A stretch of 63,063 nt of DNA, counting the filler, from Methanobacteriota archaeon (GTDB lineage Archaea > JACRDV01): assembly GCA_024860865.1 (NCBI GenBank). It is 11 parts of 11 records of this genome, joined end to end, with 100 filler letters (N's around TTAATTAATTAA, not from the genome) between each part and the next. Parts side by side here need not be neighbours in the genome. Positions count along the whole stretch, not along the records: positions 55,014 to 60,359 come from JACRDV010000138.1; 10 more parts are not named here. One strand, 5' to 3'. Below the pieces are notes generated by a model that saw nothing but the letters and a program-made list of their open reading frames with translations, ran no database searches and had not been told where the DNA came from. A program made the translations under genes and the position numbers. This document shows positions 5,946 to 60,359 of the stretch, in pieces. Numbering within the stretch: the first letter of the stretch is position 1; each line of letters begins with the position of its first letter.

Positions 5946-6710
5946 ATGGCTCATGTGTATTCTCTTGAAGGACAACCAGTAAAAGAAGTGGAATTGCCTG
6001 AAGTTTTTAAAGAAGAAATTCGCCCTGATGTTATCAAACGGGCAGTTATTGCAGCTCAAACCCATAGGATCCAACCTAAGGCAACTGATGTGATGGGGGG
6101 CAAACGAACCTCTGCTTACTCCCGAGGACCTGGATATGGTATGGCAAGAATCCCAAGAATTAGAACTGGAGGTCGTGCTGCATTTGCACCAATGGCAGTT
6201 GGAGGCAGAGAAGCGCATCCTCCAAGAGTGGAGCGGAAGATTAGAGAGAAAATTAATAAAAAAGAAAGGAGGCTAGCTATTCGCTCTGCTATTGCAGCAA
6301 CTGCACTAAAAGAGCTAGTTCAAAAGCGCGGACATAAAATAGAAAAAATCTCTGAGCTTCCACTAATAGTTGAAGACGCATTCCAAACCTTAAAAAAAGC
6401 AAATGAGGTTAAGAAAGTTTTTCAAAAACTTGGCGTAATTGAAGATGTCGAACGCGCAAAAGCTAAGAAAACTATCCGAGCTGGAAAAGGAAAAATGCGG
6501 GGGCGCAAATATCGCAAAGCTAAAGGTCCGCTTGTTGTGATCGAAAAGGATGAAGGAGTTCTCCGCGCAGCAAGGAATTTACCGGGTGTCGATGTTTGTC
6601 TCGTAAATAATCTTAATGCAGAGCTATTGGCTCCTGGCACGCACTTAGGTCGCCTAGCGATTTGGACTGAATCCGCAATAGAAGGGCTCAGAAAAGGTCT
6701 ATTTACATGA
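5946..6710 (+). CDS. rpl4: 50S ribosomal protein L4 (uL4)
   Basis: IRPDVIKRA, GGREAHPP, IRAGKGKMRGR and LAPG motifs; follows rpl3. Confidence 0.97.
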   Translation: MAHVYSLEGQPVKEVELPEVFKEEIRPDVIKRAVIAAQTHRIQPKATDVMGGKRTSAYSRGPGYGMARIPRIRTGGRAAFAPMAVGGREAHPPRVERKIREKINKKERRLAIRSAIAATALKELVQKRGHKIEKISELPLIVEDAFQTLKKANEVKKVFQKLGVIEDVERAKAKKTIRAGKGKMRGRKYRKAKGPLVVIEKDEGVLRAARNLPGVDVCLVNNLNAELLAPGTHLGRLAIWTESAIEGLRKGLFT

Positions 6711-6720
6711 GGTAAAAATT

Positions 6721-6984
6721 TTGCTTGACCCTACAAAAATAATAGTTCGCCCTTATGTTTCTGAAAAAACAATGAGATTAATTGAAAAAGAAAATAAACT
6801 AGTATTTGTAGTCGATAGAAAGGCAAACAAACCAACTATCAAAGAGGCTATTGAAAAACTATACGATGTCAAAGTTGCTGACATAAATACTGAAATTACA
6901 TCTAAAGGCCTTAAAAAAGCATATGTAAAGCTTAAAACAGAATATAAAGCAAGTGATATCGCAACTAAAATTGGAGTGATTTGA
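6721..6984 (+). CDS. rpl23: 50S ribosomal protein L23 (uL23)
   Basis: PYVSEK, ENKLVFVVD and KKAYVKL motifs; operon position. Confidence 0.96.
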   Translation: MLDPTKIIVRPYVSEKTMRLIEKENKLVFVVDRKANKPTIKEAIEKLYDVKVADINTEITSKGLKKAYVKLKTEYKASDIATKIGVI

Positions 6985-6993
6985 GGGAATAAC

Positions 6994-7016
6994 ATGGGCA
7001 AGCGTTTAAAATCGCA
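6994..7016 (+). CDS. rpl2: 50S ribosomal protein L2, first codons only (contig end)
   Basis: ATG 6994 gives MGKRLKS after a GAGGG ribosome-binding site; expected position after rpl23. Confidence 0.8.
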
Positions 7017-7116
7017 NNNNNNNNNNNNNNNNNNNNNNNNNNNNNNNNNNNNNNNNNNNNTTAATTAATTAANNNNNNNNNNNNNNNNNNNNNNNNNNNN
7101 NNNNNNNNNNNNNNNN
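7017..7116. other. Artificial contig linker
   Basis: N run with TTAATTAATTAA. Confidence 0.99.
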
Positions 7117-7303
7117 AAAAAAGTTAACTTACAAGCCAATCGGACTATAGATTTTGAAAATAGGAAGAGACCATACAGAAAAATAACGCCATACGAGTTC
7201 TTCGACAAAGTTGAAAAAAGAGTACCAACTTCTCTTCCTAGAAGACTACAAATAAATACACAAAAGATTAACCAACGAGATCAAACTCTAACCACTAAGC
7301 AGA

Positions 7304-7362
7304 ACAGGCACCTACACCATCACCCTAGAATTCTGGCCCCAAAAACTCTTCTACATCGGCTC
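7304..7362 (+). repeat. 59-bp direct repeat, copy 1
   Basis: ACAGGCACCTACACCATCACCCTAGAATTCTGGCCCCAAAAACTCTTCTACATCGGCTC; 57/59 identical to 8138-8196. Confidence 0.95.
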
Positions 7363-7438
7363 TTGAGCCCCAAGAAATGGCAAGTTGCACGAAAAGGCTA
7401 TAAGTTATTATGTAGTTACATAGTTATATGGTGATATT

Positions 7439-7666
7439 TTGGGAAAGTATGCGACAATTTCGGTTCCCGTTGATGTCAAAAAGCTCTTGGAAAAGGCTAA
7501 GGGCAGAGATGAATGGGGCAGTTTTCTCCTCAAACTATACGCAGAGGTTAAGAGGTTGAAGAGTAAGAAGGCATTCGAGGAGCTGGCAAACACTCTCACT
7601 GGCGAAGACTTGAAAGCCATAATCGAATCCAGCAAAGAGTTTAGGGAAAGGTTCGCGTTCAGATGA
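7439..7666 (+). CDS. vapB: VapB-type antitoxin
   Basis: 75 aa with a ribbon-helix-helix-like start (YATISVPVDVKKLL); ATGA overlap with the PIN gene. Confidence 0.75.
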   Translation: MGKYATISVPVDVKKLLEKAKGRDEWGSFLLKLYAEVKRLKSKKAFEELANTLTGEDLKAIIESSKEFRERFAFR

Positions 7667-8031
7667 ACCTACTTGACACAGACATAATCATAGAGATACT
7701 ACGAGAGAGAAGATACGAAGTCGGAGCCATCTCAATCATAACACTTACCGAGGTGTTAAGAGGACTAGAAGCCAGAAAAAGAGCCAAAGTCAAAGAGTTA
7801 CTCGAAAAAAGCTTTAACCTACTAAATCTAGACAACGAAGTCATAGGAACCTACTGCAACCTATATTACAAGCTCAAAGAGGAAGGCACACTTATACCAG
7901 ACGCCGACCTGCTCATAGCCGCAACAACAATGTCCCACAACATGATGTTAAAAACAAAAGATGAACACTTCGAAAGATTGAGACATTTAGGCTTAAAGCT
8001 AGCACAAGCATCTCAAGAGCGGAGAGAATAG
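7663..8031 (+). CDS. vapC: VapC/PIN-domain toxin
   Basis: PIN acidic residues in LLDTDIII, TLTE, DADLLIAA and TKDEHF. Confidence 0.9.
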   Translation: MNLLDTDIIIEILRERRYEVGAISIITLTEVLRGLEARKRAKVKELLEKSFNLLNLDNEVIGTYCNLYYKLKEEGTLIPDADLLIAATTMSHNMMLKTKDEHFERLRHLGLKLAQASQERRE

Positions 8032-8107
8032 ATCAATCCCGCCCAAAAACTGGATCGCACATATCATCAGAAAACAAATACCGCACAAATAACAATTCAT
8101 AATCAAA

Positions 8108-8266
8108 GACTTCGCTAATGCTTGGTACATTAACAAGACAGGCACCTACACTGTCACCCTAGAATTCTGGCCCCAAAAACTCTTCTACATCGGCTCCACA
8201 ATATCAATAACAACCCTCACCATATGCATACTATATATCAGCAACAAGAAAGAGATAGAAAAATAA
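8108..8266 (+). pseudogene. Orphan C-terminal remnant of a membrane-anchored protein, containing repeat copy 2 (8138-8196)
   Basis: Translates as DFANAWYINKTGTYTVTLEFWPQKLFYIGSTISITTLTICILYISNKKEIEK*: a beta-strand end, a transmembrane helix and a basic tail, with no start codon. Confidence 0.6.
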
Positions 8267-8306
8267 ATTTATGAATTTTTAAGACAGGCTTATTTGGCCT
8301 CTATAG

Positions 8307-9284
8307 TTACCTAAGAATTGCAAACAAAATAGCAATCATAGCATAAACAACTTCCAATGTTAAAATGCGTTGTACTAGTTGCTTTTCATTAAGCGACCCT
8401 GAAATAAGAAATGCATGAGCTAAGGCCGGATATTGTGGCGGTGTGAGAATACCATCTTCCCTAACTTTTGTGTCTCCATAGATATATCGGCCAGCGAACG
8501 GCCTCCTTACCATCATCTTTAATGTGAAATCGATAGCATATGGAATCATTAATATTACACATATGAACTCAATTTTTCCAATAATAGCAGCGGAGGCTAT
8601 TGTAGCACCAATTAAGAGAGTTCCAGAATTGCCTGGGAAAATTTTTGCTGGATACCAATTATAGTATAAAAATGCAATCAAAGCAGCAGCCAGAGGTAAT
8701 ATTATGATTACAACCTCAAGTTTGTTAAGAATAACTGCTGCTACTGAAATAGCGCTGCAGGCAATGAAGCCAACTCCAGCTTCTAGTCCATTAAATCCGG
8801 CGAGCATATTAGTTAAGTTTGATGCAGTTGTTATAGCAAGCGGAATTAGAACAAACCAATAAAGTTGTCCAAATTCTAAAGACCCGATTAAAGGAATTGT
8901 TATAGATGTGCTTTGACCGTGGGAAGCGATAATAAGAGGATAAGAAAAAATAGCAGGAAGAAGGAACTTGTAACGTTGCCTAATTGGTCTTAAATCGTCT
9001 ATTCCTCCAAGCAGACCTATTAAAACAGCAGTTAAAATAGCGAAACTTAATTTTTCTGTGGGAAATATTGTTGGGAAAATCAACAAAGTTGTAGAGACGG
9101 CTAGAGCATAACCAAATAAAATAATAAGTCCTCCAGATGTTGGAACCCATGTTGGATTAAATTTGTGAATGTCTCTGCAAAGAAGTCCGAGTTTTCTGAA
9201 TTTATCGATTAAAACAGGTGTCGTAATATAGGTAAAGAAAAACGCTATAGTAAAAGAAGTTATAAGGGCTAAAACCATTTTCAT
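8307..9284 (-). CDS. UDP-GlcNAc:polyprenol-phosphate GlcNAc-1-phosphate transferase (MraY/AglH/DPAGT1 family)
   Basis: Multi-transmembrane; DIHK, PTSGG, GGIDD, NLTNMLAGFNGLEAG and YPAKIFPGN motifs. ATG 9284 overlaps the upstream stop (ATGA). Confidence 0.9.
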   Translation of the reverse strand: MKMVLALITSFTIAFFFTYITTPVLIDKFRKLGLLCRDIHKFNPTWVPTSGGLIILFGYALAVSTTLLIFPTIFPTEKLSFAILTAVLIGLLGGIDDLRPIRQRYKFLLPAIFSYPLIIASHGQSTSITIPLIGSLEFGQLYWFVLIPLAITTASNLTNMLAGFNGLEAGVGFIACSAISVAAVILNKLEVVIIILPLAAALIAFLYYNWYPAKIFPGNSGTLLIGATIASAAIIGKIEFICVILMIPYAIDFTLKMMVRRPFAGRYIYGDTKVREDGILTPPQYPALAHAFLISGSLNEKQLVQRILTLEVVYAMIAILFAILR

Positions 9285-9508
9285 AATTGTTGCCTTGAAA
9301 GTTTTACAACTATTTTCCAGAGGATCATGGTTCCGATGGCAAATCCAGTTATTCCACAAATCATAGTTAATAGCGCATTAGCAATGAGAGCTAAGTTATA
9401 GCTGAAAAGCCAACCGAGGTACAAACCCAAATAGCTCAGAAAAAATGTTACAAAATTAGTAATTAGTATTTTCCAAAAGTTTTTTTGTGCAAATCGCAAC
9501 TCTAGCAC
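9281..9508 (-). CDS. Small two-helix membrane protein
   Basis: 75 aa hydrophobic ORF, translationally coupled to the transferase. Confidence 0.6.
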   Translation of the reverse strand: MLELRFAQKNFWKILITNFVTFFLSYLGLYLGWLFSYNLALIANALLTMICGITGFAIGTMILWKIVVKLSRQQL

Positions 9509-9630
9509 ATCTTTAACTTGATTGATTATTATTTAAAAACAAACTATAATAATATTCACCGCATTGCCCGCATCTACAATCATATTTTCCTCGACGACTT
9601 TATCTTTTTGAGAACTTACTGAAAAGAAAA

Positions 9631-12600
9631 CTAATTTATAATAAGTTTGAAGTAAAGGTCAGTCTCATCTTTAAATATATCGTAATTACTCTTTTCAATT
9701 TTTAGAGGTTTACTGGTTATAGATGTAATAGCCATGGCTATAGCGCTGCAAAGGGGGCATCCTATTATTTCGCAGATAGATGGCTTCGTTTTACTCACGC
9801 TATCGCACACATAAGATAGTTTAGATCCTTTCAATTTTACATGAACTGTATCATCTTCTTGATGAGCATATACCTCAGTAGCAAGGTCAAGTTTGTCAAC
9901 AAGAATAGATGGTAATCTATCAATAAATTCTTCTAACGAAATGTTTTCCTTCCCCAATTCGCTCTTAATAATGTTGTAAAGATTTTCTCCAATTGGAGTC
10001 ACAACTAATTCTCCACCTTTAGTAGGCACAAGTATTTTGCCAGTTGGCAGGTAAATCCCTTTTCCAATAACTCCAATTTCTTGGAAGAGATGGCAAAAAG
10101 CATTGAGGGAGGAAACAATTCCTTGACTTGTTAAAGCGCTTCTTGTGTACATTTCTATTGCAAAATATAGTAGAATAAAGCCTATGGCAAAAGCAGATAT
10201 TACAGTGAACTCTGATGATACAGACCCAAATACAAAAGCAGTTATGGTTGCAATTGCACTTAAAATTAACAATGCCAATCCAGGTAGAAATCTCTTTTTC
10301 TTCCTCAAATACCAAACAAATTCTCTTATCTTCTCTTGTTTCTTGGCATATTCTAATTTCTTAGATAATTCAGGTATAATTGAAAAAGGTAGTTTAATTA
10401 TTTCTCCAAGTTTGAATGAAAGAATAGTTGTATTTTTCTCTGAATTGTGTTCATGTCTTTCAAGCGAGACTTGCCTGCCTGTGGCTTTGGCTATCGCTAA
10501 AGCTAGAGCACTGCATATTGGGCAACCAGTGAGATCACAAATGGAACTTTTGGCATCGGCTAATTGTTGGCAGACTTCTGAAAAGCGTGAACCACCTACG
10601 ATTATCTCAACGCTATCGCTTCCATTCTTAGTTATTTTAACCTCATCAGCTATCTCTATTCCATCTTTTAGGACGGGTGGGAGAGCATCTATTAGATAAT
10701 CAATTCCAACTCCCTGAAGGCCAGTGCCCAATTCCCTCTCTATGTTAGTGAGACTTTCCGACCCAACTGACTGAACCAGTGCTTCATTATCTGGAATAGT
10801 TGATTGGTCTTTTACACCTAAATTTGTTTTTTTGAGAAGATTTCCAAGCGATAAAAGAGGCGATAGGATTAATCTCGTTGCTACCTTTGAGGGTAAATAA
10901 CTTTCAAAGCCATGGCCTAGCAAAATTATACCCATCATAATAAAAACTACGGTAACTATTGCCCATGTAGTAGACCATTTTGAGAGAGCAATAGCCATCG
11001 TAAGAGAGCATGAACCCAAAAGAGTTAAACCAGCCAAAGAAATTTTAGATTCTTTAATTACAAACCATATAACTTTTAACTTGTCAATTGATCGCGAGAA
11101 AGGATTAAATTGTAAAGAAGGGAGAGCAGAATTCCAAATAAGCGAGGGGCTATCGCCCAACATTAAATGTCTTTTTATGAGTCCTTTATTCTCCAAACTT
11201 TCAAGAGCTTTTAGCACATTATGATCATTTAAGTAAGATGGTGGCATATTTTTATGGGCAGTGATTAAATCTAGAACTGTATTTTCATTTTCTGAAAGGT
11301 GGCGCTGAAGGAGGCGCAATCTATTTGTTCTTCTTTCAGAATGAATAGCAACTATTGCAGCGAGGACAGCTAACAAAATTGCTAAAAATACTATTGCTGG
11401 TCCAATGTTATAATAGAGAGTATAAACAAAAGCAATGGGTATAGATTGGCCTTTAATTTGCTGCCAGTGTGTGACAATAGCTTTTCCTAATTCTACAAGA
11501 ATATCTGCAACTGCCTGGTAGTCAGAAGGATCTGATATGATTCCTTTCGAGGCAAAAGTTTCAGTATAAGCTAAGAGGCTCAAACCTACTGCACGAGCTC
11601 CAGGGGCTGTGTCAGTTTTAAGAAATATTTGATCGGTAAAAGTAAACACAACTGGAGTCTGGCGAAGCGGAGTATTAAAAACTAACACATCCCCTCGCAA
11701 AAGGGGAGATTCGGCAAGCATTTTGCTCCATCGAGCATCAAGTTTCCACCCTTGCGTTACCGGTAAGCAAGCTAGCCAGCCACCCACTATATGTAGGAGC
11801 GGAGAAGTTGGAGCTGTCTCTACATACACTGTTACCATTTTATTGTCTATTGAGCCAGGAGCAATTTTTTCGTAAGCATATATGTGGGCATTTAAAGATT
11901 GATAATATCCAGATATTGGCTCAACATATGTTAGTCTCCAACCAGAGAAGTTCGCAGGGAGTAATAGCTCCGCGTCTTTTCCTTCTGGGGTATATCTTGC
12001 AACATATGCAGGGTCTAATTTTGGAACTATAATAAGTGGAACGCTTGCAAATAAGAAAAGGAGAAGGATGACTGAGAGAGCAGTGGCTTTAAAAACAATT
12101 CGAACTCCGCTAACTTTTGGTTTTGGAATTATTGAGGCTATTCTATCTATTGCTTGAGTTGATATTTTTGGACTTTTTATTATTGAAAGTGCAATCACAA
12201 TGAAAGCAGCTGTTACTGTTATTACCCATCCACCGAATAAGTGAAATGCCTCTACTGCAAATCCATTGCCATAAAGATAGCCAATACCAATTATTGCACA
12301 TATTCGAATTATGTTAAGCAAATATACTATAAGACATCCTGCGACAAATATTGAAATTTTTTTAATTAATGAACCCTTGATAATGTAAGCTAGGAAAACT
12401 CCAAATGCTATGAATCCAAGAAGTGAGTAAATCCCTGCGCATGGCAATCCTACAATAAATGATAAGGGCTCTCCAGCACGAGATACGAGATTTACAATAT
12501 AGGCTCCTTGAGAAGTTGATAGCATAAGAGGTATTCCAAGAGCTCTCAATACAAAAACAGTTACACTGGCACTGATTGCAATCGATGTAGCAGCTAATAA

Positions 12601-13228
12601 AACAATGAAACTGAGAGGTAATGGGCACATTAAAGTTAAATAACCTATTGGAAATGCTAGTGCTCGAAGTCCTTCGAATCCAAGAAAAAGAACAATGCAA
12701 CCTATAATGAACATTATAAGTGATAGTATGTGGAGTTGTAATTGAAGCAAAGAGAAAGTTCCATAGAAGTAGAGGGTAAAGGCAAATAAGCATAAGGCCA
12801 GACCAATTAAATCTTGAGGTAAGCTTGGGTCTTTGCTAAGCTGAGCTACTGCTTTTAAGGCTGCTCTTTTTCTATAAACTAGATAAGTTGCGACTATTGG
12901 TACAATTAAAATATAACGTGCATAATCGTTTAGTAGAATCTCGTGCCATAGTGCAATAAAATCTTTGTGATAAGCTATCGCAACAACAGCGGCTATGGTT
13001 AAGAACTTATAATAAACGATTATTCCTTGTTTTAATGCGATTAACCACTTGGCTTCCACCAAACGGGTGAATTCAATAATTTTCTTTTTAATCTTCTTTA
13101 ATGAATTGCGCAGATAAACAGCAAATGTAGCTAGAGCAGATGCAAGAGATCCAAGGATTGGAAATTCAGGAACGGGGACTGGGTTGGTTGAAGAGGGAAA
13201 ATAAACTAGGCTATCGCGAGTAGAACTA
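9631..13228 (-). CDS. Multidomain exosortase/archaeosortase fusion, 5'-incomplete: PEF-CTERM-like segment, sortase, EpsI-like domain, winged-helix-like segment and two TM-Cys4 modules
   Basis: Catalytic triad C (GLPCAG, 12439-12441), R (NIIRI, 12304-12306) and H (AFHLFGG, 12241-12243). The frame stays open from the called start at 13062 to the contig edge at 13228. Confidence 0.85.
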
Positions 13229-49304: not shown

Positions 49305-50252
49305 GTGTTCGGAAGAAAAGGCATTACTACTCTTTATAAGGGGGCTCGCGTGCGTGCAAAAGATCGTGGTCCAGTGCATTTTAAAACTCCATTGACTGTC
49401 CATGAAGGAGACATAATGAGCATAGCGAAAAGAAATGTAGTAACAATAACGCCAATTACTGCTATCAAAACAGCTGCTTCGATTATGGTCAAGCATAGCT
49501 TTAGAAGACTTCCAATTGTTGACGCTGGAACAAATTTGCTTCTTGGAATTATAACAAGCACAGATATTGTAGATTTTTTTGGTGGCGGCGATAAGTTTCA
49601 GATAATTCGCGAAAGGTATCAAGGAAACCTGTTGGCTGCTTTTAATGAGGCTGTACGAGAAATAATGGTAAAAGATGTTGTGACAATCACTAATACAGCT
49701 TCAATTAATGAAACGCTTGAGAAAATGTTCATAAATAGCATCGGAGGAGTCCCTGTCGTTACTCATGATTACAAAGTTGTTGGAATTGTAACCGAAATGG
49801 ATTTTGTTAAACTTCTAACTGACAAATTCACTGGTAAGAAAGTTGAAGAATTGATGACAATAGAAGTTATAACAGCTCCTCCAGGCATGAGTATTTTGGA
49901 TGCAGCTCGTTTGATGATTCGAAATGGTTTTAGAAGGTTGCCTGTTGTTAGAGATGAAAACTTAATTGGAATTTTGACATCAACCGATATTATTGCTTTC
50001 ATTGGGAAGAACATAGTATTTAAAAAAATTTCAACAACCCAAGCTGAAGAGGCTTTAAAGACTAGAATTGAAGAAATTATGACAGAGGGAGTAATGACAA
50101 CTGAACCTTCAGCTGATTTGGGGTCAGTAGCGAAAACAATGATTGAAAGGCACACCGGTGCATTGCCAGTTGCTGAAGATGAAAAATTAGTTGGACTAAT
50201 TACTGAACGCGATTTGTTATTTTCTTTAATACAGGAGGTTGCTCCCACTTGA
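49305..50252 (+). CDS. Four-CBS-domain protein
   Basis: Four RRLPxV/GIxTxxD repeats and FFGGG. Confidence 0.9.
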   Translation: MFGRKGITTLYKGARVRAKDRGPVHFKTPLTVHEGDIMSIAKRNVVTITPITAIKTAASIMVKHSFRRLPIVDAGTNLLLGIITSTDIVDFFGGGDKFQIIRERYQGNLLAAFNEAVREIMVKDVVTITNTASINETLEKMFINSIGGVPVVTHDYKVVGIVTEMDFVKLLTDKFTGKKVEELMTIEVITAPPGMSILDAARLMIRNGFRRLPVVRDENLIGILTSTDIIAFIGKNIVFKKISTTQAEEALKTRIEEIMTEGVMTTEPSADLGSVAKTMIERHTGALPVAEDEKLVGLITERDLLFSLIQEVAPT

Positions 50253-51112
50253 AAGTAGCCGACATTATGACCGATGAGATAGTTATTGTTAAGCCAACTG
50301 AGCCATTAGCTCATATAAGGAAACTTCTGCTTAAGCATGAGATCAGCAGGTTGGTCGTTGTGGATGATATGTTTAATCCAATTGGGATAATATCTAAGCA
50401 CGATATTGCGCGAGCAACCTCAAAAGGAGGGCCACCTTGGCGACGGCGACCCATTGATAGAATTCCTGCTCAGCGATTGATGACTTCAAACATTAAAACT
50501 ATAGATTTAGACCTACCGGTAAAAGAAGTTGCACAAATTATGTTGAGCAATAAGCTTGGAGGTTTACCAGTAATTGAGGATAACAAATTAGTTGGAATTA
50601 TTACGAAAACAGATATGACTCGATTCTATGCTGAAAATGGGAAATCTAAGGCAAAAATTGTTGATTTAATGACTAATAACGTTATAACGGTCAATAACCT
50701 CCATAGTTTATCCCATGTTATTAAGACCTTAAATAAACACAAAATAGCTAGGTTAGTTGTCGTTGGAGGGGTCAATCAACCTGTTGGAATTTTGACTCTC
50801 TCTGATCTATCTTTCGCTTTTCTAGAAAGACCAACTGAGGGTATACCAATAAAGAAAGTACAGTACACTAGAAAAGCTGAACACGCTGGTCGACCTATAT
50901 TTAGGCATGTTAAATCCTTTGCTTTATTAACAGCTGAGGATGCAATGACTCCAAACCCAATTACAATAAATGAGGCTCAAGATGCTGTCGAAGGAGCTGA
51001 CATAATGATTAAACGTGGAATTAGCGGACTACCTGTTTTAAATGAAAATGATGAACTTGTTGGCATAATTACAAAAACTGATTTTGTAAAAGGTATCGCA
51101 ACGCTATTTTGA
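50249..51112 (+). CDS. Four-CBS-domain protein
   Basis: CBS repeats and PPWRRRPID; TTGA overlap with the previous gene. Confidence 0.9.
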   Translation: MKVADIMTDEIVIVKPTEPLAHIRKLLLKHEISRLVVVDDMFNPIGIISKHDIARATSKGGPPWRRRPIDRIPAQRLMTSNIKTIDLDLPVKEVAQIMLSNKLGGLPVIEDNKLVGIITKTDMTRFYAENGKSKAKIVDLMTNNVITVNNLHSLSHVIKTLNKHKIARLVVVGGVNQPVGILTLSDLSFAFLERPTEGIPIKKVQYTRKAEHAGRPIFRHVKSFALLTAEDAMTPNPITINEAQDAVEGADIMIKRGISGLPVLNENDELVGIITKTDFVKGIATLF

Positions 51113-51121
51113 GGGGAAAGA

Positions 51122-51913
51122 ATGGAAATTAGAGAAGCAATATCCAAACCGCCTATTACAATTGATAAAGATGCTAATCTTTCACATGCTTTGGAGATAA
51201 TGAAAAAAAATAACATTTCAAGATTAATTGTAATTGAAAATGGAAAGCTAGTGGGAATTATTACTGAAATAGATATAGCAAAAAAGCTCGGCTCATCGAA
51301 AGCTGGAAAAGTTTCATCCGAACGTTTGCATGTTTCGGCTGCCATGACAGAGAAGCCTATAACTATTTCATTGAATTCCAGCATTTCTGAAGTTGCACAG
51401 TTAATGTTAGAACATAGAATTAGTGGATTGCCAGTTATGGATAATGATAAAATTGTTGGTATAATCACTAGAAGTGACTTGATTAAGGCTTGCGTGGATA
51501 ATACACAGCCAATTGAACAAATTATGACCAAAAATCCAGCAACAGTTTCCGCATCTACTCGTGCTGTTCATGCAAGAAGGATTTTATTAGACAGGAAAAT
51601 CAGCAGACTGCCGGTTGTAGAAGAGGGAAAATTAATTGGCATTGTTACTGAAGAAGACTTTGCTAAATACATGGGGGCATTCAAAAAAGTTGTTCCAGAC
51701 CGATTTAAGTATTCAAGAATCAGGAAATTGCTAGTTGAGGATATAATGACTCAAAATGTCCAGTCCGTTAAACAATCTGCTACTGTAGGGGAAGTTGCAA
51801 AATTAATGCTTGATTACAGTTTCAGCGGGGTGCCAATTGTGGACAAAGATGATAGAATTATAGGTATAGTTACAAAAACTGATTTACTTAAATCTATTGC
51901 ACAAAAAAGTTGA
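51122..51913 (+). CDS. Four-CBS-domain protein
   Basis: Four CBS repeats. Confidence 0.9.
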   Translation: MEIREAISKPPITIDKDANLSHALEIMKKNNISRLIVIENGKLVGIITEIDIAKKLGSSKAGKVSSERLHVSAAMTEKPITISLNSSISEVAQLMLEHRISGLPVMDNDKIVGIITRSDLIKACVDNTQPIEQIMTKNPATVSASTRAVHARRILLDRKISRLPVVEEGKLIGIVTEEDFAKYMGAFKKVVPDRFKYSRIRKLLVEDIMTQNVQSVKQSATVGEVAKLMLDYSFSGVPIVDKDDRIIGIVTKTDLLKSIAQKS

Positions 51914-51918
51914 GTTAG

Positions 51919-53073
51919 ATGGAAAGTTCAATCCCACTTGAAGGGATTTCAGCTCTGGTTAAAATTCCAGTTTACTACCTTAAAGGTGCGCTGCAAAAAG
52001 GTTCAATTCAACTTATTACTGATTTTTTGATTCCTTACTTGAGATTTAAGAAAGATATAAAACATCTTGAGAGGGGAACCGTAATTTTTCTTGGAAATGG
52101 AATCAGTGTAATTCGTGGTTTCCCGAGGATAAGGAGAGCACTTATTTTAAGCGCTGCATTAAGGAGATACTTCAAAACAGAAGTTGCTGTTGAAGAAAAA
52201 ATGAATGGCTATAATGTTCGATTAGCAGCAATTCAAAATGGAATTGTAGCTTTAACTCGCGGCGGATTTGTTTGCCCATTTACTACTGAGAAAGCAAAAG
52301 AATTATTGCATCTGCAGGCTTTTTTCAAAGATCATCCTAATCTTACGATTTGTGCAGAGATGGTGGGGGAAGAAAGCCCTTATGTTGTTCATAAATATGA
52401 GGAAGCAGATCACTTTGGAATCTTTATTTTCGATGTTCGTGAGCACTTAACTAATAAGCCATTGCCTTTATTAGAACGCAGAAAATTAATTGAAGAATAC
52501 AATCTTCCCCAAGTTAGATTTTTTGGGATATACTATGTTAACGAAGCCAGCTCAAAAATCATGGAAATCATTAAACAGCTAAATGTAACCAACCGTGAGG
52601 GAGTTGTAATAAAAGATCCGAAGATGGAAGCTCCTCCTATAAAATATACTTGTTCAAGATCGAACGCTGGTGATTTGGAATATGCTTTTAGGTTTTTCTT
52701 TGATTATGGAAAAGATTTTTTCTTTAGCAGAGTAATTAGAGAAGGTTTTCAAGCAGTAGAGCTAAGAGAAAAAGAGCCAGAGCTTGAAAGACGAGCGTTG
52801 CAACTTGGTAAAGGCATATTGTATCCAATGGTTAATTCAATCCAAAAAGTTGCATCGGGTGAGGAAGTGGTTGAGCCAGTTGTAATCAAAGTTCGAGAAG
52901 TTGAAACTGCTGAGAACTTCATTAAACATTTAAGGCGCATGGGAGTCATAGCTGCAATCGACAGAGTTGAAGTGCAAAAAGATGGAACTAGTTTAGTTCA
53001 TTTAAAACGCATGCATCAAGCCACTACTAATAAAATTAAGGCATTTTTGGTGGGAATGGGCGGTTTAGATTAA
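51919..53073 (+). CDS. Archaeal ATP-dependent RNA ligase (Rnl3/Pab1020 family)
   Basis: RGFPRIRR, motif I EEKMNGYNVR, TRGGFVCPFTT, EGVVIKD and IKY. Confidence 0.92.
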   Translation: MESSIPLEGISALVKIPVYYLKGALQKGSIQLITDFLIPYLRFKKDIKHLERGTVIFLGNGISVIRGFPRIRRALILSAALRRYFKTEVAVEEKMNGYNVRLAAIQNGIVALTRGGFVCPFTTEKAKELLHLQAFFKDHPNLTICAEMVGEESPYVVHKYEEADHFGIFIFDVREHLTNKPLPLLERRKLIEEYNLPQVRFFGIYYVNEASSKIMEIIKQLNVTNREGVVIKDPKMEAPPIKYTCSRSNAGDLEYAFRFFFDYGKDFFFSRVIREGFQAVELREKEPELERRALQLGKGILYPMVNSIQKVASGEEVVEPVVIKVREVETAENFIKHLRRMGVIAAIDRVEVQKDGTSLVHLKRMHQATTNKIKAFLVGMGGLD

Positions 53074-55013: not shown

Positions 55014-55185
55014 CGGCGCCGGCCGCAACGTAAGCGCGGTGGATATTAAGGATCGCCTCCGGCCGGTCAAAATTTTGCGCTTCAAAGCATTCTCCCGGCC
55101 GCATCCCCTGCTCCATCAATTGCGTTCCCATGGCGCCGTCCATGACCAAAACGCGCCGCCGAATCTCGGATAGAAAATTATTCAC
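55014..55185 (-). CDS. Homocysteine S-methyltransferase (MetH-type) N-terminus, truncated and GC-rich
   Basis: VLVMDGAMGTQL...IHRAYVAAGA motif. Confidence 0.8.
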
Positions 55186-55615
55186 CCGGGAGTCTCCTCA
55201 TCACTAAAGCATCTTCACCATCGGGATAATGCCCTTTCTCCACACCAATTTCTTTAAATCCTAACTTAGAATAAAAATATTGAGCAGCTGAATTGCTTGC
55301 TTTTACTTCTAAATATACTCGCTTTGCTCCCCTACTTTTTAATCTATTTATGATATTGGTCATTAAAACAGTTCCGATGCCTTTTTTCCTATAACTGGGG
55401 TCTACTGCTATTGCTAGAATGTAACCTTCTCCTTTCCATCTAATTGTCCCAATGATACCAACTACATATCCAACTACTAGCCCATCTATTTCCGCAACAA
55501 GAAAACCAGAGGGGGTAATTCCATAATACCTCGAGAGCAATGAAAGCGGGGTTAAATGATCAATTGAGGCTTTTTCAATTTCTAAGATACTATCTCTATC
55601 TCTTAATTCATGCAT
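55178..55615 (-). CDS. rimI: RimI/Ard1-like N-acetyltransferase
   Basis: IAVDPSYRKKGIG, LEVKASN..A..FY..LGF and YPDGEDALVM motifs. Confidence 0.9.
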   Translation of the reverse strand: MHELRDRDSILEIEKASIDHLTPLSLLSRYYGITPSGFLVAEIDGLVVGYVVGIIGTIRWKGEGYILAIAVDPSYRKKGIGTVLMTNIINRLKSRGAKRVYLEVKASNSAAQYFYSKLGFKEIGVEKGHYPDGEDALVMRRLPGE

Positions 55616-55654
55616 TCTGATAATAATGGAGTTTCCGATATTGATGCACCGTTA

Positions 55655-57835
55655 TCAATATCTCTCTTTAAATTCTTCCATTAGTCTTTGATACTGTTCT
55701 AATTGTTTCGTTCCTATAGGTTTCACTTTCTTTAGCGCTTCTTCAAAATGTTTCTTTAAAATCTTAAAATCTAAGCGCCCTTGGCTATTATGGTTTATGA
55801 ATTCTCTAATAGCTAGCATAGAAGCCTCTCTACAAACAACTTCAATATCTGCACCAACATAATTTTCAGTTTGCTCGGCTAGAGCATTTATGTTTACATC
55901 GTTGTCCAAGGGCATACCACATGTATGAATCTTAAAGATTTCCTCTCTTGTTTCTCTATCTGGAGGAGGTATGTAAATTAATCTATCAAATCTTCCAGGT
56001 CTTAAAATAGCAGGGTCTACAATATCTGGTCGATTAGTCGCAGCTAATACGACGCATCCATGCAACTCTTCAAGTCCATCAAGCTCAGTTAAAAGTTGGC
56101 TGACCACTCTTTCTGTAACATGTGAATCTTCATGTTCAATCCCTCTCCTCGGGGCTATGGCATCGATCTCATCAAAGAAAATAACACATGGAGCAGCTTG
56201 TTTTGCTTTTTTAAATACTTCTCGAATGGCTTTTTCTGATTCTCCGACAAATTTTGAGAAAAGCTCAGGTCCTTTAATAGAGATGAAATTGGCTTCAGTT
56301 TGAGTTGCAACCGCCTTTGCAAGCATAGTTTTCCCGGTACCTGGTGGACCATAAAGCAGAATCCCTTTTGGAGGCTTAGTTTTAGCATACTTAAAAACGT
56401 CTGGATATTTAAAAGGCCATTCAATCGCTTCAATCAGTTCTTGTTTAGCATCTTCTAGTCCACCGATGTCTTCCCATTTAACATTTGGAACCTCAACAAA
56501 TACTTCCCTTAAAGCAGAAGGCTCAATCTCTTTTAAAGCATTTACAAAATCACTCATGGTTACTTTTAGTTTAGTAAGAACTTCAGGTGGTATTAATTCA
56601 ATTTCAAGGTCGATCTCAGGAAGCACTCTTCGCAGTGCATGCATAGCCGCTTCTTTACATAAAGCCGCGATATCAGCACCAACAAATCCGTGGGTAACAT
56701 CAGCAAGTTTTTCAAGGTCAACATTTTCAGATAATGGCATACCGCGGGTATGGATTTGAAGGATTTCTTTTCTTCCATTTCTATTTGGAACTCCAATGAC
56801 TATTTCTCTATCAAAGCGACCAGGTCTTCTAAGTGCCGGGTCAAGAGCATTCGGTCGATTGGTAGCACCGATAACTATGATTTTACCTCTAGATTCTAAG
56901 CCATCCATTAATGCAAGCAATTGGGCAACAACTCTTTTTTCAACCTCACCAGTAACTTCTTCTCTCTTTGGTGCAATTGCATCAAGCTCATCAATAAAAA
57001 TTATACTTGGAGCAAGCCTATTCGCATCATCAAAAATTTCTCTAAGCCTAGCCTCGCTTTCACCATAATACTTGTTTATTATTTCTGGTCCATTGATATC
57101 TATGAAATGTGCATCAGTCTCATTGGCAACAGCTTTAGCAATCAGGGTTTTGCCAGTTCCAGGTGGTCCGTGCAGCAATACTCCCTTAGGAGGCTCAATC
57201 CCAAGTTGTTTAAAGACCTCTGGATGCCTTAAAGGCAGCTCAATCATTTCTCTGATTTTTTGGATTTCATTGTGGAGTCCTCCGATATCTTCATAAGTTA
57301 TTGCAATTCTTTCTGCGACTTCAGCAGGTTTTTCACTTATTTTAATGATTGTATCAGAGCAAACAAGTAAAGCCTCTGCTTTAGGTTTCAAATCAATAAC
57401 AACGAGTTGAACAAATGATCCGAAAAAATTTATTCGTATTTTATCTCCTTCAACTAAAGGTAAGCCCTCCAGTAAACTTTTAACGCTTTCTGAAATATCT
57501 CTTATAAATGGCGACCTAACTTGTCCAATTAAAGCTAGGATAACTTTAGCAGCTTTTTCTGCTCTAATTTTTTGAATGCGAACTCTATCATCGAGCCTTA
57601 TCTCTGCGTTGCTTCTTGTAATCCCATCAATTTGAATGATATCTTTTCCGCGATCTTGTGGATATGTAGGCATAACCTTTGCAGCTGTCTTTCTTTTGCC
57701 AATGATTGCAATTACATCTCCTGTTTGTAATCCAATTGTTTTCATATCTTCCGGATCTATTCTAGCTATTCCTCTGCCAACGTCTCTTGCGGTCGTCTCA
57801 GTTACTCGAAGAACTAATTCGGTATTAGTTAACAT
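55655..57835 (-). CDS. cdc48: Cdc48/VAT AAA+ ATPase
   Basis: N-domain [10 protein letters not shown]; two AAA modules ([23 protein letters not shown]). Confidence 0.96.
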
Positions 57836-57922
57836 AAAGATCTCTCAGACATATTTAATATGATTCTTGGGACCCCGGTAATTTTTTCGAGTTCCGGTAG
57901 TGCCCGAATTTAAGTTAATTTA

Positions 57923-58624
57923 CTATTTACTCAAGTATAAGTGTACCCCATGAATGAGAGGTGGAGATAATACAATGGCCTTCGGAGATAAAATGCTCAG
58001 CCATTTACCTTTACTATTTGCGACTCCAACTGTAACAAATCCAGTTCCAGAAGTCCAAATTTCAGGAATCTCGCACTTTAGCAAATAAGTTTTGGTTTCT
58101 CTTGGAGGTAGCTGAACATCTTCACTTATCCAAAACTCCTTACCTTTTGAAGATGTAATGCGAATATGTAGTTTACTATCAGAAAGTAAAACTGTCCCTG
58201 TATTTTTGACTGTTACGGAAAAATTTAAATCTTCACCCACTCTAGCGTCAGAAATATCGAATGATATCACATCTGCATCCTCAATGGACTTGACTTTAAA
58301 GATGATTTTAAGACTGCTTTCTTTAGAAGGATCTCCCTTTGATTTCCCATTAACAATGATTGGAGTTTGATCTCCACCTAAAGCTTGTATGGGAGCTGTA
58401 ACTTTAATTGTTAAATAATAAATTTCACGCGAGTCCAGTAGTATATCAAATGGAGGAATTTTCTCAGCCGTTTTATCATAGATTTTTGCACCCCATGCCT
58501 CATGAACTTGCGAAATATCCCAAGATATTTCTATCTCATCTTTTACACTACCAACATTTTCAACAGCTAGCGTATAGGTTAATGTTTGTCCCGGTGCTAT
58601 GTCAATGGATATTTCCTCAGGCAT
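57923..58624 (-). CDS. Two-domain Ig-like (CARDB/NEW3-like) protein without a signal peptide
   Basis: Two Ig-fold signatures: PGQTLTYTLAVENVG and GEDLNFSVTVKNTG. Confidence 0.7.
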   Translation of the reverse strand: MPEEISIDIAPGQTLTYTLAVENVGSVKDEIEISWDISQVHEAWGAKIYDKTAEKIPPFDILLDSREIYYLTIKVTAPIQALGGDQTPIIVNGKSKGDPSKESSLKIIFKVKSIEDADVISFDISDARVGEDLNFSVTVKNTGTVLLSDSKLHIRITSSKGKEFWISEDVQLPPRETKTYLLKCEIPEIWTSGTGFVTVGVANSKGKWLSILSPKAIVLSPPLIHGVHLYLSK

Positions 58625-59331
58625 ATAGCCACCCCGTGCATAGGTTTAGATAATAAAATCTTCATCAAAGAAATAAGCTGGTCTGCCTCAATTCTAAAAA
58701 ATTCCACCTCCTTTTTAGCGCGATCTATGATAAGTGCAACTGTTTTTGGGTAAAGCTTTTGATAAGCAAGTTGAGTCAGTATGTCGCGCATGGACATGGA
58801 AGTTCCATTTCTCAGGTGCGAATGATACCAACCTACTACGTAGTTCTTTCCATTTCTAAGTTCTTCTGCTTTATTAGCTATTTTAACAGGGTCTAAATCC
58901 ACCGATACTGAATCTCCCTCAGCGATTGCCACGGAATTAGTAATTTGCAATTTATCTTCAGCAACCTCACCAATCAACAAACCGCCAACTTCTTTATCAA
59001 CGTATTTTTGAGCATGCGTGAAACACTTCTTAAGTACTTCTTCTTTTATTTGGAGGACTTTTGATTCAGCAAGCTTTTTTCTTAGATATACTCTTCGATT
59101 AGTCCTTTTTACACCTATACACAAAGTTAGATTATCTATATTTTGAACTCTGAGATTTTTTTCGCCCTTAAGGTTAAGTTTTTTTCCTTGGTGAACAAGT
59201 ATAACTTCTTCATCCGCATCTATTTTAAGAAAATCTACGAGACGCTGCGTGATATAGTCCAAAGTATAATCTGGATGAACCTTCAACCTCAGTGGAGTTG
59301 GATTACCGAAAGCAGGAAATATCTTGACCAT
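58597..59331 (-). CDS. Ubiquitin-like domain fused to a JAMM/MPN+ metalloprotease
   Basis: JAMM motif E (KEVGG)...HSH-x7-S-x2-D is intact. The N-terminal 75 aa look like a beta-grasp (VHPDYTL...ILVHQGKKL). Confidence 0.8.
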   Translation of the reverse strand: MVKIFPAFGNPTPLRLKVHPDYTLDYITQRLVDFLKIDADEEVILVHQGKKLNLKGEKNLRVQNIDNLTLCIGVKRTNRRVYLRKKLAESKVLQIKEEVLKKCFTHAQKYVDKEVGGLLIGEVAEDKLQITNSVAIAEGDSVSVDLDPVKIANKAEELRNGKNYVVGWYHSHLRNGTSMSMRDILTQLAYQKLYPKTVALIIDRAKKEVEFFRIEADQLISLMKILLSKPMHGVAICLRKYPLT

Positions 59332-59353
59332 TTATTTAGACTCTAATAATTTT

Positions 59354-60313
59354 TTATTTGGAAGCCACGAAAGCTAATTTTTGCGCTTCTTCAAGTCTTT
59401 TGAAAACGAGCTTTCCTCCGCAAGCCAAACATCTTGCTACAAAATTCGTGTGCGCATGCTTGCAGGTGGAGCAGATCCATATGTACATCTTATCACCTCC
59501 TTTTTCATTTTTTAACGGTTCTTTTTTATTTTTATTTAGAAAATACTCTGAAATATCTCCTTTCAAGATTTTTTGCTTGTATTCGTTTGTAGCCTCGATG
59601 CACGTCTGAAATTTTATCTGAGTATCCTTTCTGGTGATATAGTTAAGCATAGCCTTCAACATTAGGATATACCCTGCTCTTCCAACACAAGTAGGATGCA
59701 TTAGCAACAAAAAGTAGGACTCTCCAGTATTGATTGCACTCCGACAGGCGCAATCAAATCTTCTCATCCAAGCCAACAACACAGATCTTACTCCTATTTT
59801 GTAGGCAGCTGAATCGAAATCTCCACAATTCATTGGAAAAACAACTATATCATTCTTCAAAAAAGGTTGGAAATTAAATTCTTTTTGTGAGCTATCGTAA
59901 AAGAAATCAAGTTTTTTTAATGATATATAAAGAGCTTCATTCCAAAGCATGTTAGGGGCTCTAAATCCTTTTGGATCAAAATTAGGAATAATTTCGCGTA
60001 TCATGCTAATAGCATTTTGTATTCTTGTGATTTGTGTTTGAGTCTCATGTAAAAAATGTAAAATTTTAGGATTTTGCTGAGTGCCATAACCAAAGTGGAA
60101 ATCACTGTGGACTGCGAGTTCAAATCCATTTTCACTTAGTAACTTAATGCTCTCTGGATATCTCAATGCAGTTTCGGCATCTAGGAAGAAAGTTGCTGGA
60201 AAGCCATTAAGGATATTCATAATCCTCTCAATTTTGCCATTAAGATCCCCGAAGTATTCATATTCCTCTACATCAAAGGTAAGCAATAAATGTATTAACG
60301 GTTTCTCAGTCAT
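59354..60313 (-). CDS. Polysaccharide deacetylase (CE4/NodB) with a C-terminal zinc ribbon
   Basis: LTFDVEE, ATFF, ELAVHSDFH, GFRAP, YDSS and LMHP motifs; tail CSTC...CLACGG. Confidence 0.85.
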   Translation of the reverse strand: MTEKPLIHLLLTFDVEEYEYFGDLNGKIERIMNILNGFPATFFLDAETALRYPESIKLLSENGFELAVHSDFHFGYGTQQNPKILHFLHETQTQITRIQNAISMIREIIPNFDPKGFRAPNMLWNEALYISLKKLDFFYDSSQKEFNFQPFLKNDIVVFPMNCGDFDSAAYKIGVRSVLLAWMRRFDCACRSAINTGESYFLLLMHPTCVGRAGYILMLKAMLNYITRKDTQIKFQTCIEATNEYKQKILKGDISEYFLNKNKKEPLKNEKGGDKMYIWICSTCKHAHTNFVARCLACGGKLVFKRLEEAQKLAFVASK

Positions 60314-60359
60314 TTTTTGCCTCTTTCAATCAAGCGATTTTTGCTTAATTCATTTGATA

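Follow-up and report, generated by a model that had tools for sequence, protein, structure and literature searches.

A split ubiquitin-fold–JAMM gene beside cdc48 in an archaeal contig, and its fused Ubl-JAMM-Ig-Ig relatives near acetyltransferase, deacetylase and gas-vesicle genes

What does a ubiquitin-like (Ubl) domain fused to a JAMM metalloprotease do next to a signal-less immunoglobulin (Ig)-like protein, a Cdc48-type ATPase and an N-acetyltransferase in an archaeon? This question is raised by a run of genes in a metagenome-assembled genome (MAG) of a Methanobacteriota archaeon (GCA_024860865.1; 1.54-Mb, 160 contigs, 92% complete). The window, i.e., the whole stretch of DNA analysed (63,063 nt), consists of contigs of this MAG chained with N-spacers; the gene run lies entirely on contig C99 (window positions 55014-60359, 5346 bp), and only genes within 55014-60359 are true neighbours. 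A sequence-only reading of the locus had proposed a Cdc48-adaptor or protein-quality-control module, in which the Ubl-JAMM protein acts as an Npl4-like cofactor and the Ig protein brings substrates. The explanation that we favour, with a probability of roughly 55%, is that the Ubl-JAMM open reading frame (ORF; 244 aa, 58597-59331, minus strand) and the Ig-like ORF (233 aa, 57923-58624, minus strand) represent a split Ubl-JAMM-Ig-Ig isopeptidase of a rare archaeal family. The partners of this family would be a GNAT acetyltransferase and a CE4 (polysaccharide deacetylase family) protein, joined in the relatives by gas-vesicle (gvp) genes, while Cdc48 would not be its conserved neighbour.

A rare family of fused proteins and its split member

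In an exhaustive HMMER search covering 1.84 billion representatives, 436 proteins were matched at E ≤ 0.001; besides the query, only four of them (P0002-P0005, 468-486 aa) share the full architecture. P0002-P0004 align over both N-terminal domains (residues 3-216); the best stretch of P0005 is the JAMM part (residues 103-222), and its full architecture was read from the sequence and the alignment. A word-based search among proteins of similar length recovered the query alone (1 of 429 candidates), and a word-based search of longer proteins revealed six further fused proteins of 476-483 aa (P0151-P0156), which are unnamed. The one-genome-per-species scan gave 26 loci with a sole full-length relative (L009, in a MAG labelled uncultured Nitrosopumilales), the other 25 being JAMM-only, and the scan of metagenome contigs gave relatives of the full-length type at L035-L044, the other 70 of the 80 loci kept matching the JAMM part only. 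These 25 genome and 70 metagenome JAMM-only loci were left out of all counts. Two of the 70 metagenome loci, L065 and L085, were inspected and are CSN5-like genes on eukaryote-like contigs. Comparison with 40 other archaeal genomes, which are related to the source at the domain level only, produced two matches; both are JAMM proteins with a C-terminal membrane helix and no Ubl, that is, a different architecture. Among viral contigs, none of the 15 pattern matches is a relative of the family.

Altogether, 15 full-length rows were collected, 13 of them distinct, and all are single proteins of 468-486 aa with the domain order Ubl-JAMM-linker-Ig1-Ig2. The Ubl-JAMM part of the window (residues 2-216) is 32-42% identical to 14 of the 15 rows, and each half of the Ig-like ORF is 24-42% identical to an Ig domain in all 15; all four domains of the window copy are homologous to those of the family. 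The sequence-only reading had assigned the Ig protein to the same machine as the Ubl-JAMM protein, and this link is borne out by the fusion of the two in 13 of 13 distinct full-length relatives. The accompanying suggestion that the module might be undescribed has also held up: none of the seven family members present in name-bearing listings carries a name, and no paper describing the Ubl-JAMM-Ig-Ig architecture was found in a literature search that covered mostly titles and abstracts and subscription journals only thinly. The combination of an Rpn11-type JAMM, a ubiquitin fold in the same chain and Ig domains, in this genomic context, appears to be new.

The structure of one fused relative (P0002) was modelled with a predicted local distance difference test (pLDDT) score of 83.5 and a predicted template modelling (pTM) score of 0.50. 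The model contains a floppy linker at residues ~240-260 (pLDDT ~45-55) and two beta-sandwiches at pLDDT ~90, the best Foldseek matches of which are the paired C-terminal barrels of transglutaminases. The Ig-like ORF of the window gave weak DUF11, CARDB, Transglut_C and NEW3 matches.

When comparing the Ig domains of the window with those of the relatives, a reversal of their order can be noted. Residues 9-95 of the 233-aa ORF (58340-58600) correspond to the second Ig of P0002 (residues 390-476; 39% identity, 4e-21, BLASTP), and residues 115-233 (57926-58282) correspond to its first Ig (residues 264-385; 40% identity, 1e-22). The same crossed matching was seen against all 15 family rows. Judged by these alignments, the Ig pair of the window is circularly permuted relative to the relatives. 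This arrangement would arise most simply if the Ig pair was duplicated, the leading Ig1 and the trailing Ig2 were lost, and a single base was inserted or deleted afterwards. Misassembly was considered as the source of the permutation and rejected, because no direct DNA repeat of ≥12 nt is present within 57850-58750.

The two ORFs overlap by 28 nt (58597-58624, three-frame translation) and the Ig-like protein has no N-terminal hydrophobic stretch, as the sequence-only reading had described. In a MAFFT alignment, the last part of the JAMM ORF falls on the strand connecting Ig1 and Ig2 in the relatives. A -1 frame change at ~58612, after an AAA codon, would merge the ORFs into a single reading (~468 aa), collinear with the fused relatives and with exactly their spacing. 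We read the Ubl-JAMM and Ig ORFs as two halves of one gene. With its two ORFs in separate frames and its Ig domains in the opposite order, the window copy departs from the single polypeptide with Ig1 followed by Ig2 and is a split, permuted variant of the family. The Ig ORF has its own ATG with GGGGTGG 4 nt upstream; therefore, its separate translation is possible. Programmed -1 frameshifting typically uses an X-XXY-YYZ slippery heptamer; none was found in the 28-nt overlap, and such frameshifting is not supported by the sequence here. In the run search, one DNA run (X1, a groundwater metagenome) contained the stretch. Its depth there is 3-5x, and 58563-58868, including the frame change, is not covered by its contigs; at so low a depth, an error of assembly may account for the frame change. 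Of all family members, the window copy diverges most (≤42% identical to any relative), and it departs from the family at the conserved Ubl and linker positions P10, S32, I39, P81 and A116.

The ubiquitin-type domain and the JAMM protease

The 244-aa ORF was characterised by its Pfam JAB match, an AlphaFold 2 (AF2) model built on a 14-row family alignment, and structure comparison. The model has a mean pLDDT of 80 and a pTM of 0.80. In its N-terminal domain (residues 1-77; 59101-59331, minus strand), the strands and helix follow the order bb-a-bb-b, which is that of a beta-grasp, with pLDDT of 84-92 across most of the domain. The domain superposes on the parkin Ubl, USP7 UBL (Z 7.7), midnolin Ubl, SUMO and ubiquitin with VIA Z scores of 7.3-7.8 and a root-mean-square deviation (rmsd) of 1.6-2.8 Å. 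A profile of 12 N-domains of the family matches single ubiquitin chains at ~18-21 bits, the USP9X UBL at 9e-7 and the Caldiarchaeum Ub-like protein, including chain C of 6FNN, at 2-4e-5; there is no UBX domain among the 60 best chains matched. By these profile matches, the N-domain is of the ubiquitin type and not of the ThiS/MoaD or UBX type. The beta-grasp that had been suspected from the sequence is confirmed by the topology of the model, the structure comparison and the profile matches.

The absence of a di-glycine at the junction of the Ubl and JAMM domains had also been pointed out, and it is confirmed by the sequence and by the N-domain alignment: Gly-Gly after the last strand is absent from the window copy and from all 12 aligned N-domains. 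At the place where Gly-Gly would be, the relatives carry a conserved TPP(L/I)P. In comparison with conjugatable modifiers (ubiquitin, the small archaeal modifier proteins (SAMPs) and Urm1), the domain shares the beta-grasp fold, lacks Gly-Gly and is not adjoined by genes for an activating (E1) or conjugating (E2) enzyme, either on contig C99 or among the Pfam-scanned flanking ORFs of L009, L035-L038, L040 and L042. Release of the Ubl by its own JAMM was considered as well; it is unlikely because of the missing Gly-Gly and the TPP(L/I)P conserved at the junction of the relatives. A non-cleavable ubiquitin fold in the enzyme's own chain is likewise found in the UBL-bearing deubiquitinases USP14/Ubp6, USP7 and USP9X; however, these are eukaryotic cysteine proteases, whereas the protein described here is a JAMM metalloprotease of an archaeon. 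The built-in UBLs of deubiquitinases dock or regulate the enzyme.

The second domain (residues ~91-226; 58654-59061, minus strand) is an Rpn11-type JAMM/MPN+ metalloprotease domain (Pfam JAB, 3.8e-15; 56.2 bits against a cut-off of 22.5). The sequence-only reading had called the JAMM intact, and indeed all catalytic residues are present in the motif E114...H170-S-H172-x7-S180-x2-D183, whose columns show little or no variation in the 14 family rows compared. The Caldiarchaeum Rpn11 homologue is matched at 6.3e-16 by phmmer and 2.8e-11 by Foldseek (34-36% identity, rmsd 1.9 Å, VIA Z 13.8-14.1). The other best solved relatives are eukaryotic Rpn11 (5.5e-11; VIA Z 14.9 for yeast Rpn11) and CSN5. 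The motif, the MPN fold and the family score are all those of the Rpn11-like branch of JAMM/MPN+ proteins. The NCBIfam desampylase match is weak (40.5 bits against a cut-off of 130). Npl4 chains match the MPN part with VIA Z of 9.4-11.6 and appear at Foldseek rank 12. The Npl4 matches stand below at least 16 rows of the Rpn11/CSN5/BRCC36 type.

The nearest solved archaeal relatives of both N-terminal domains are CsUb and CsRpn11 of Caldiarchaeum subterraneum (6FNN/6FJV; Fuchs et al. 2018), and CsRpn11 shares the catalytic motif with the window JAMM. According to the part of PMC6043591 available, CsUb and CsRpn11 are separate proteins encoded in or beside an operon for ubiquitin, E1, E2 and the ligase E3, and the ubiquitin ends in Gly-Gly after processing. 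In contrast, the members of the family considered here form one chain without Gly-Gly, with two Ig domains added, with no E1, E2 or E3 gene adjoining and with GNAT, CE4 and gvp genes as neighbours.

Neighbours of the family and the place of Cdc48

The neighbourhoods of the family were counted by tblastn with the window proteins over 11 loci (L009 and L035-L044). A CE4 deacetylase (45-52% identical) and a GNAT (44-53% identical) lie beside the fusion gene in nine of the 11. The pair was missed in L041, which has only 482 nt of upstream flank, and in L042. In L035, L036, L037, L038 and L040, the gap between the end of the GNAT gene and the fusion gene is 6-21 nt. The deacetylase gene is divergent in L035-L038 and lies co-oriented upstream in L040 and L044; the window has deacetylase, fusion, Cdc48 and GNAT, in that order. 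The maintenance of the linkage between GNAT, CE4 and the fusion across three arrangements argues for a functional tie. At L009, three transposase genes (DDE_5/DDE_Tnp_1, DDE_Tnp_1 and Mutator-type) were observed around the fusion gene (6622-9818 and 12309-13115), parting it from the GNAT.

Genes of gas vesicles verified with Pfam (GvpA/J, PF00741, or GvpF/L, PF06386, above the cut-off) were found in seven of the 11 loci (L009, L035, L036, L040, L042, L043 and L044). The cluster of L035 includes two GvpF/L genes, an Hsp20 gene with a weak GvpH match, a weak GvpG-like match, GvpK and three GvpA/J genes. In L040, the GvpF/L gene starts 30 nt past the fusion gene. Genes for winged helix-turn-helix and PadR regulators are found repeatedly in the interval that separates the gvp genes from the deacetylase gene. 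The full-length fusion proteins of the gvp-bearing loci are 41-63% identical pairwise and therefore do not represent one recent lineage. The family thus sits in or beside clusters encoding GvpA/J, GvpF/L, GvpG, GvpK and an Hsp20. The known accessory proteins of gas vesicles are GvpF/L, GvpG, GvpH/Hsp20, GvpK, the AAA+ protein GvpN and the regulators GvpD/E; no GvpN-type gene was found among the scanned ORFs of the family loci. Of the three GvpA/J-family genes of L035 (3206-4843 and 6849-7001), two carry long C-terminal extensions, and one ends in a Cys-rich, zinc-ribbon-like sequence.

Gas-vesicle genes have been reported in a few Thaumarchaeota, according to the available parts of PMC3835317 and PMC7554672. 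In the titles and abstracts of the gas-vesicle literature, no protease, ubiquitin-fold, GNAT or CE4 component was found. A search for work linking JAMM, Ubl, Cdc48, GNAT or CE4 with gas vesicles was likewise negative (mostly titles and abstracts; subscription journals thinly covered). The survey of Makarova and Koonin (PMC2948915), in the part available, lists Ubl-E1 and Jab-E1 fusions and no Ubl-Jab-Ig protein.

Contig C99 carries six ORFs on the minus strand: five co-oriented full genes and a fragment at its GC-rich end. The Ubl-JAMM, Ig, Cdc48 and GNAT genes that the sequence-only reading had listed as co-oriented were all found in their places by ORF calling and by Pfam and NCBIfam searches. 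The CE4 protein (319 aa, 59354-60313, minus strand; Pfam Polysacc_deac_1, 5.4e-10) has no signal peptide, and its stop codon is 22 nt ahead of the Ubl-JAMM start. It possesses an additional C-terminal CxxC...CxxC zinc-ribbon-like tail (59354-59540, last ~60 residues). Deacetylase ORFs called in five loci of relatives measure 267-271 aa in four cases and 311 aa in L040. The contig ends 46 nt past the deacetylase, at just the point from which regulator and gvp genes follow in the relatives. The RimI-like GNAT (145 aa, 55178-55615, minus strand) scores 105.8 bits with TIGR01575, above the curated cut-off of 86.4. It is one of three RimI-like paralogues in the genome (the other two are encoded on contigs C108, 43% identical, and C88, 34%), and it is the one that is syntenic with the fusion gene elsewhere. 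Its stop is overlapped by the fragment at the contig end (55014-55185, minus strand), which, judged by eye, encodes the N-terminal part of a protein resembling homocysteine S-methyltransferase. Over these 172 bases, the GC content is 57.6%, compared to 37.1% in the remainder of the contig, and this end is possibly chimeric and outside the module.

Cdc48 itself (726 aa, 55655-57835, minus strand) is an AAA+ ATPase of the Cdc48/VAT type, with an N-domain followed by D1 and D2. It scores 1076 bits with TIGR01243 (cut-off 803) and contains the Pfam domains CDC48_N and CDC48_2, two AAA domains and two lid domains. Both the full Cdc48 and the GNAT of the sequence-only reading are thus confirmed by scores above the curated cut-offs. 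Each of the 40 other archaeal genomes gave a match to the N-domain at E ≤ 1e-10; across the 21 matches that were aligned, identity to it is 33-48%. In the second Cdc48 of the genome (contig C152, 57% identical overall), the N-domain query matches residues 6-101 only. The window Cdc48 is probably a housekeeping paralogue. The 87-nt spacer in front of it (57836-57922) contains an AT-rich, TATA-like element, ATATTAAATAT, which was recognised by eye and ends 15 nt upstream of the ATG; it suggests that the gene has its own promoter.

Among the 11 related loci, tblastn with the window Cdc48 detected a Cdc48-like gene in one (L042), 4.4 kb off and on the opposite strand. The gene order with Cdc48 is peculiar to the window contig, and the proposal of a conserved Cdc48-adaptor module is not sustained: the conserved partners are GNAT, CE4 and gvp. 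The N-domain of the L042 protein is 33% identical to that of the window protein, compared to 37-48% for 20 of the 21 N-domains from other archaeal genomes, and the gene is a different paralogue. Its ORF (L042:2241-5081, minus strand; 946 aa, N-D1-D2) has a C-terminal extension of ~220 aa with a zincin-like HExxH, in which Pfam gave no hit. An Hsp20-like gene lies directly before it and a GvpA gene nearby. This protein may be an AAA+ unfoldase fused to a metalloprotease. As for the window, the adjacency of Cdc48 is best read as a local rearrangement and not as evidence for an archaeal Npl4.

Weighing of the explanations

In the explanation that we favour, the fusion protein would be a cytoplasmic zinc isopeptidase or peptidase, since its catalytic motif is intact, and the Ig pair would select the target. 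The ubiquitin fold would serve as a permanent in-cis domain, which regulates the active site or docks the enzyme, and not as a released modifier; this follows from the missing Gly-Gly and from the TPP(L/I)P that is conserved in the relatives, though no longer present in the window copy. The target in the relatives would probably be a gas-vesicle protein or a regulator of the cluster, and the GNAT/CE4 pair would set an acetyl mark on it. In the window organism, the copy may act on another substrate (e.g., ThiS/MoaD-type conjugates) or may be decaying, and the housekeeping-type Cdc48 gene would have ended up separating the fusion gene from the GNAT gene. The building blocks ubiquitin and Rpn11 would here have been welded into one chain, with the conjugation chemistry lost and Ig-like targeting domains gained, and in several diverged lineages, gas-vesicle clusters would have taken up the resulting Ubl-JAMM-Ig-Ig protein along with an acetyltransferase and a deacetylase. 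Should the gas-vesicle link prove functional, it would add a proteolytic and acetylation layer to gas-vesicle biogenesis, which is of biotechnological interest, provide a natural case of a prokaryotic ubiquitin fold that serves as a fixed handle, and show how easily parts of the ubiquitin system are re-used.

Several observations weigh against this explanation. The window (directly) and L042 (at 4.4 kb) both place a family gene near a Cdc48-type ATPase, and in L042 neither GNAT nor deacetylase was found in 9.5 kb upstream. The fusion proteins of L036-L039 are 82-98% identical, so that the 11 loci amount to fewer independent cases. No GvpA or GvpF/L gene was found in the 2.6-kb downstream flank of L037 and L038, where a ParB-like gene (ParB_N and HTH_ParB) and an Hsp20-type gene follow the fusion (L037:5060-6097 and L038:3739-4779); the flanks of L039 and L041 are too short to judge. 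Neither the 5.3-kb window contig nor the 92%-complete MAG gave any gvp gene: tblastn with the Gvp proteins of L035 and L040 found none in the genome, and neither did the Pfam family search, the latter being a weak negative because the control genomes were also silent. With the contig breaking off 46 nt past the deacetylase, the organism may nevertheless carry gvp genes. No RNA run containing the stretch was listed in the run search. Finally, the window Ubl lacks the GIH and TPP(L/I)P motifs conserved in the family, and these losses together with the frame shift fit decay equally as well as a change of function.

A bolder form of the gas-vesicle connection, which we consider unlikely, is that the family is a conjugation-free descendant of the archaeal ubiquitin/Rpn11 pair directed at gas vesicles. 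The Ig domains would hold the protein on the vesicle shell or on a Gvp protein, and the JAMM would trim or release a Gvp component. An AAA+ unfoldase, namely Cdc48 in the window and the Cdc48-HExxH fusion in L042, would use the permanent Ubl as its handle, and the co-transcribed GNAT and CE4 would toggle the process by acetylation. If true, archaea would possess an organelle-specific ubiquitin-like assembly or recycling system without E1, E2 and E3.

The observations that speak for decay lead to another possibility, namely that the window copy is a relic: the gvp cluster has been lost, the accessory gene has been rearranged and frame-shifted on its way to a pseudogene, and the adjacency of Cdc48 means nothing. 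This copy is the sole split one among the full-length members seen, it carries the five deviations and the low identity noted above, and the MAG gave no gvp gene. On the other hand, apart from the frame change, the 244 and 233 codons of the two ORFs run without interruption, and all catalytic residues are retained; the Ig ORF can start at a separate ATG, with GGGGTGG just ahead of it; contig C99 still carries the deacetylase and GNAT partners; and with a depth of 3-5x, faulty assembly may explain the frame change. We regard decay as doubtful. The Npl4-like cofactor of the sequence-only reading, docking on the Cdc48 N-domain while the Ig protein brings substrates to a quality-control module, fares somewhat worse. 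Npl4 does resemble the window protein: a ubiquitin-fold domain precedes the MPN domain, the MPN parts superpose, and the window gene adjoins Cdc48 in the same orientation, to which the Cdc48-like gene of L042 may be added. However, Npl4 has a catalytically dead MPN, zinc fingers, a C-terminal domain and a UBX-like domain. In the window protein, by contrast, the MPN+ motif is intact, the Ubl is of the ubiquitin type, two Ig domains follow, and no UBX domain is among the 60 best profile matches; Npl4 also ranks below the Rpn11/CSN5/BRCC36-type proteins among the structural matches. Moreover, Cdc48 is absent from ten of the 11 related loci, the L042 gene is a different paralogue with an extra HExxH region, and the window Cdc48 is of a widely conserved type preceded by a spacer with a TATA-like element. 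Docking on Cdc48 in the manner of Npl4 is quite unlikely.

A role as a second, targeted desampylase is improbable too, to about the same degree as decay. Here, the protein would remove SAMPs, in the manner of HvJAMM2, at the hand-over to Cdc48 or PAN and the proteasome, with the Ig domains selecting substrates. The genome does encode what would be needed: five ThiS-family genes, two ThiF genes each adjoining a ThiS gene, the 20S alpha and beta subunits, and two Cdc48 genes. In Haloferax volcanii, loss of JAMM2, Cdc48c, PAN2 or UbaA stabilises TBP2 (Fu et al. 2016), and the authors suggest that HvJAMM2 needs partners (PMC4895103, in the part available). With a JAMM and a Cdc48 in one degradation pathway there, a link to an unfoldase is plausible in principle. 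HvJAMM2 is similar to the window protein in being an archaeal Rpn11-related JAMM tied functionally to a Cdc48-type ATPase and proteasomal turnover; in the same part of the paper, however, it is described as a JAMM/MPN+ homologue with no mention of Ubl or Ig domains, its link to Cdc48c is genetic and not one of gene order, and the modifier is a SAMP of the ThiS/MoaD type. The desampylase match of the window JAMM falls far below its cut-off, and archaeal JAMMs near Rpn11 occur in Ub-E1-E2-E3 operons and not with SAMP systems (PMC6043591, in the part available). No ThiS or ThiF gene is present on contig C99 or among the Pfam-scanned flanking ORFs of L009, L035-L038, L040 and L042, and this role would leave the conserved GNAT, CE4 and gvp context unexplained. 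The last candidate, an anti-virus module of the bacterial Ubl/JAB kind (CBASS Cap3, Bil-type), had been offered as an alternative by the sequence-only reading and is very improbable. It is suggested by weak PADLOC JAB matches (best 31.7 bits) and a weak match to the NCBIfam 6A-MBL cap2_3 family (18.6 bits against a cut-off of 320), but these score below the generic Pfam JAB match, and PADLOC found nothing beyond generic JAB/AAA similarity and nothing at all for the Ig, GNAT and deacetylase proteins. There is no E1/E2, cyclase or effector gene on contig C99 or in the scanned flanks of the relatives, the Ubl has no C-terminal Gly-Gly, no relative was found in viral contigs, and the neighbours are gas-vesicle and housekeeping genes.

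As for modifier systems elsewhere in the source genome, a search with Pfam ubiquitin gave no match, and neither did one with UQ_con (PF00179); the latter negative is weak because control genomes with E2 also gave no signal. A small stand-alone JAMM (147-aa ORF) was noted on contig C74, ~4.5 kb from a ThiF-ThiS pair, which makes a conventional set of the SAMP type. The second ThiF-ThiS pair is located on contig C28, and its ThiF match contains one TAA. On contig C98 of the window (49305-51913 and 51919-53073), three consecutive genes with multiple CBS domains are followed by a gene resembling an RNA/DNA ligase, according to the ORF list.

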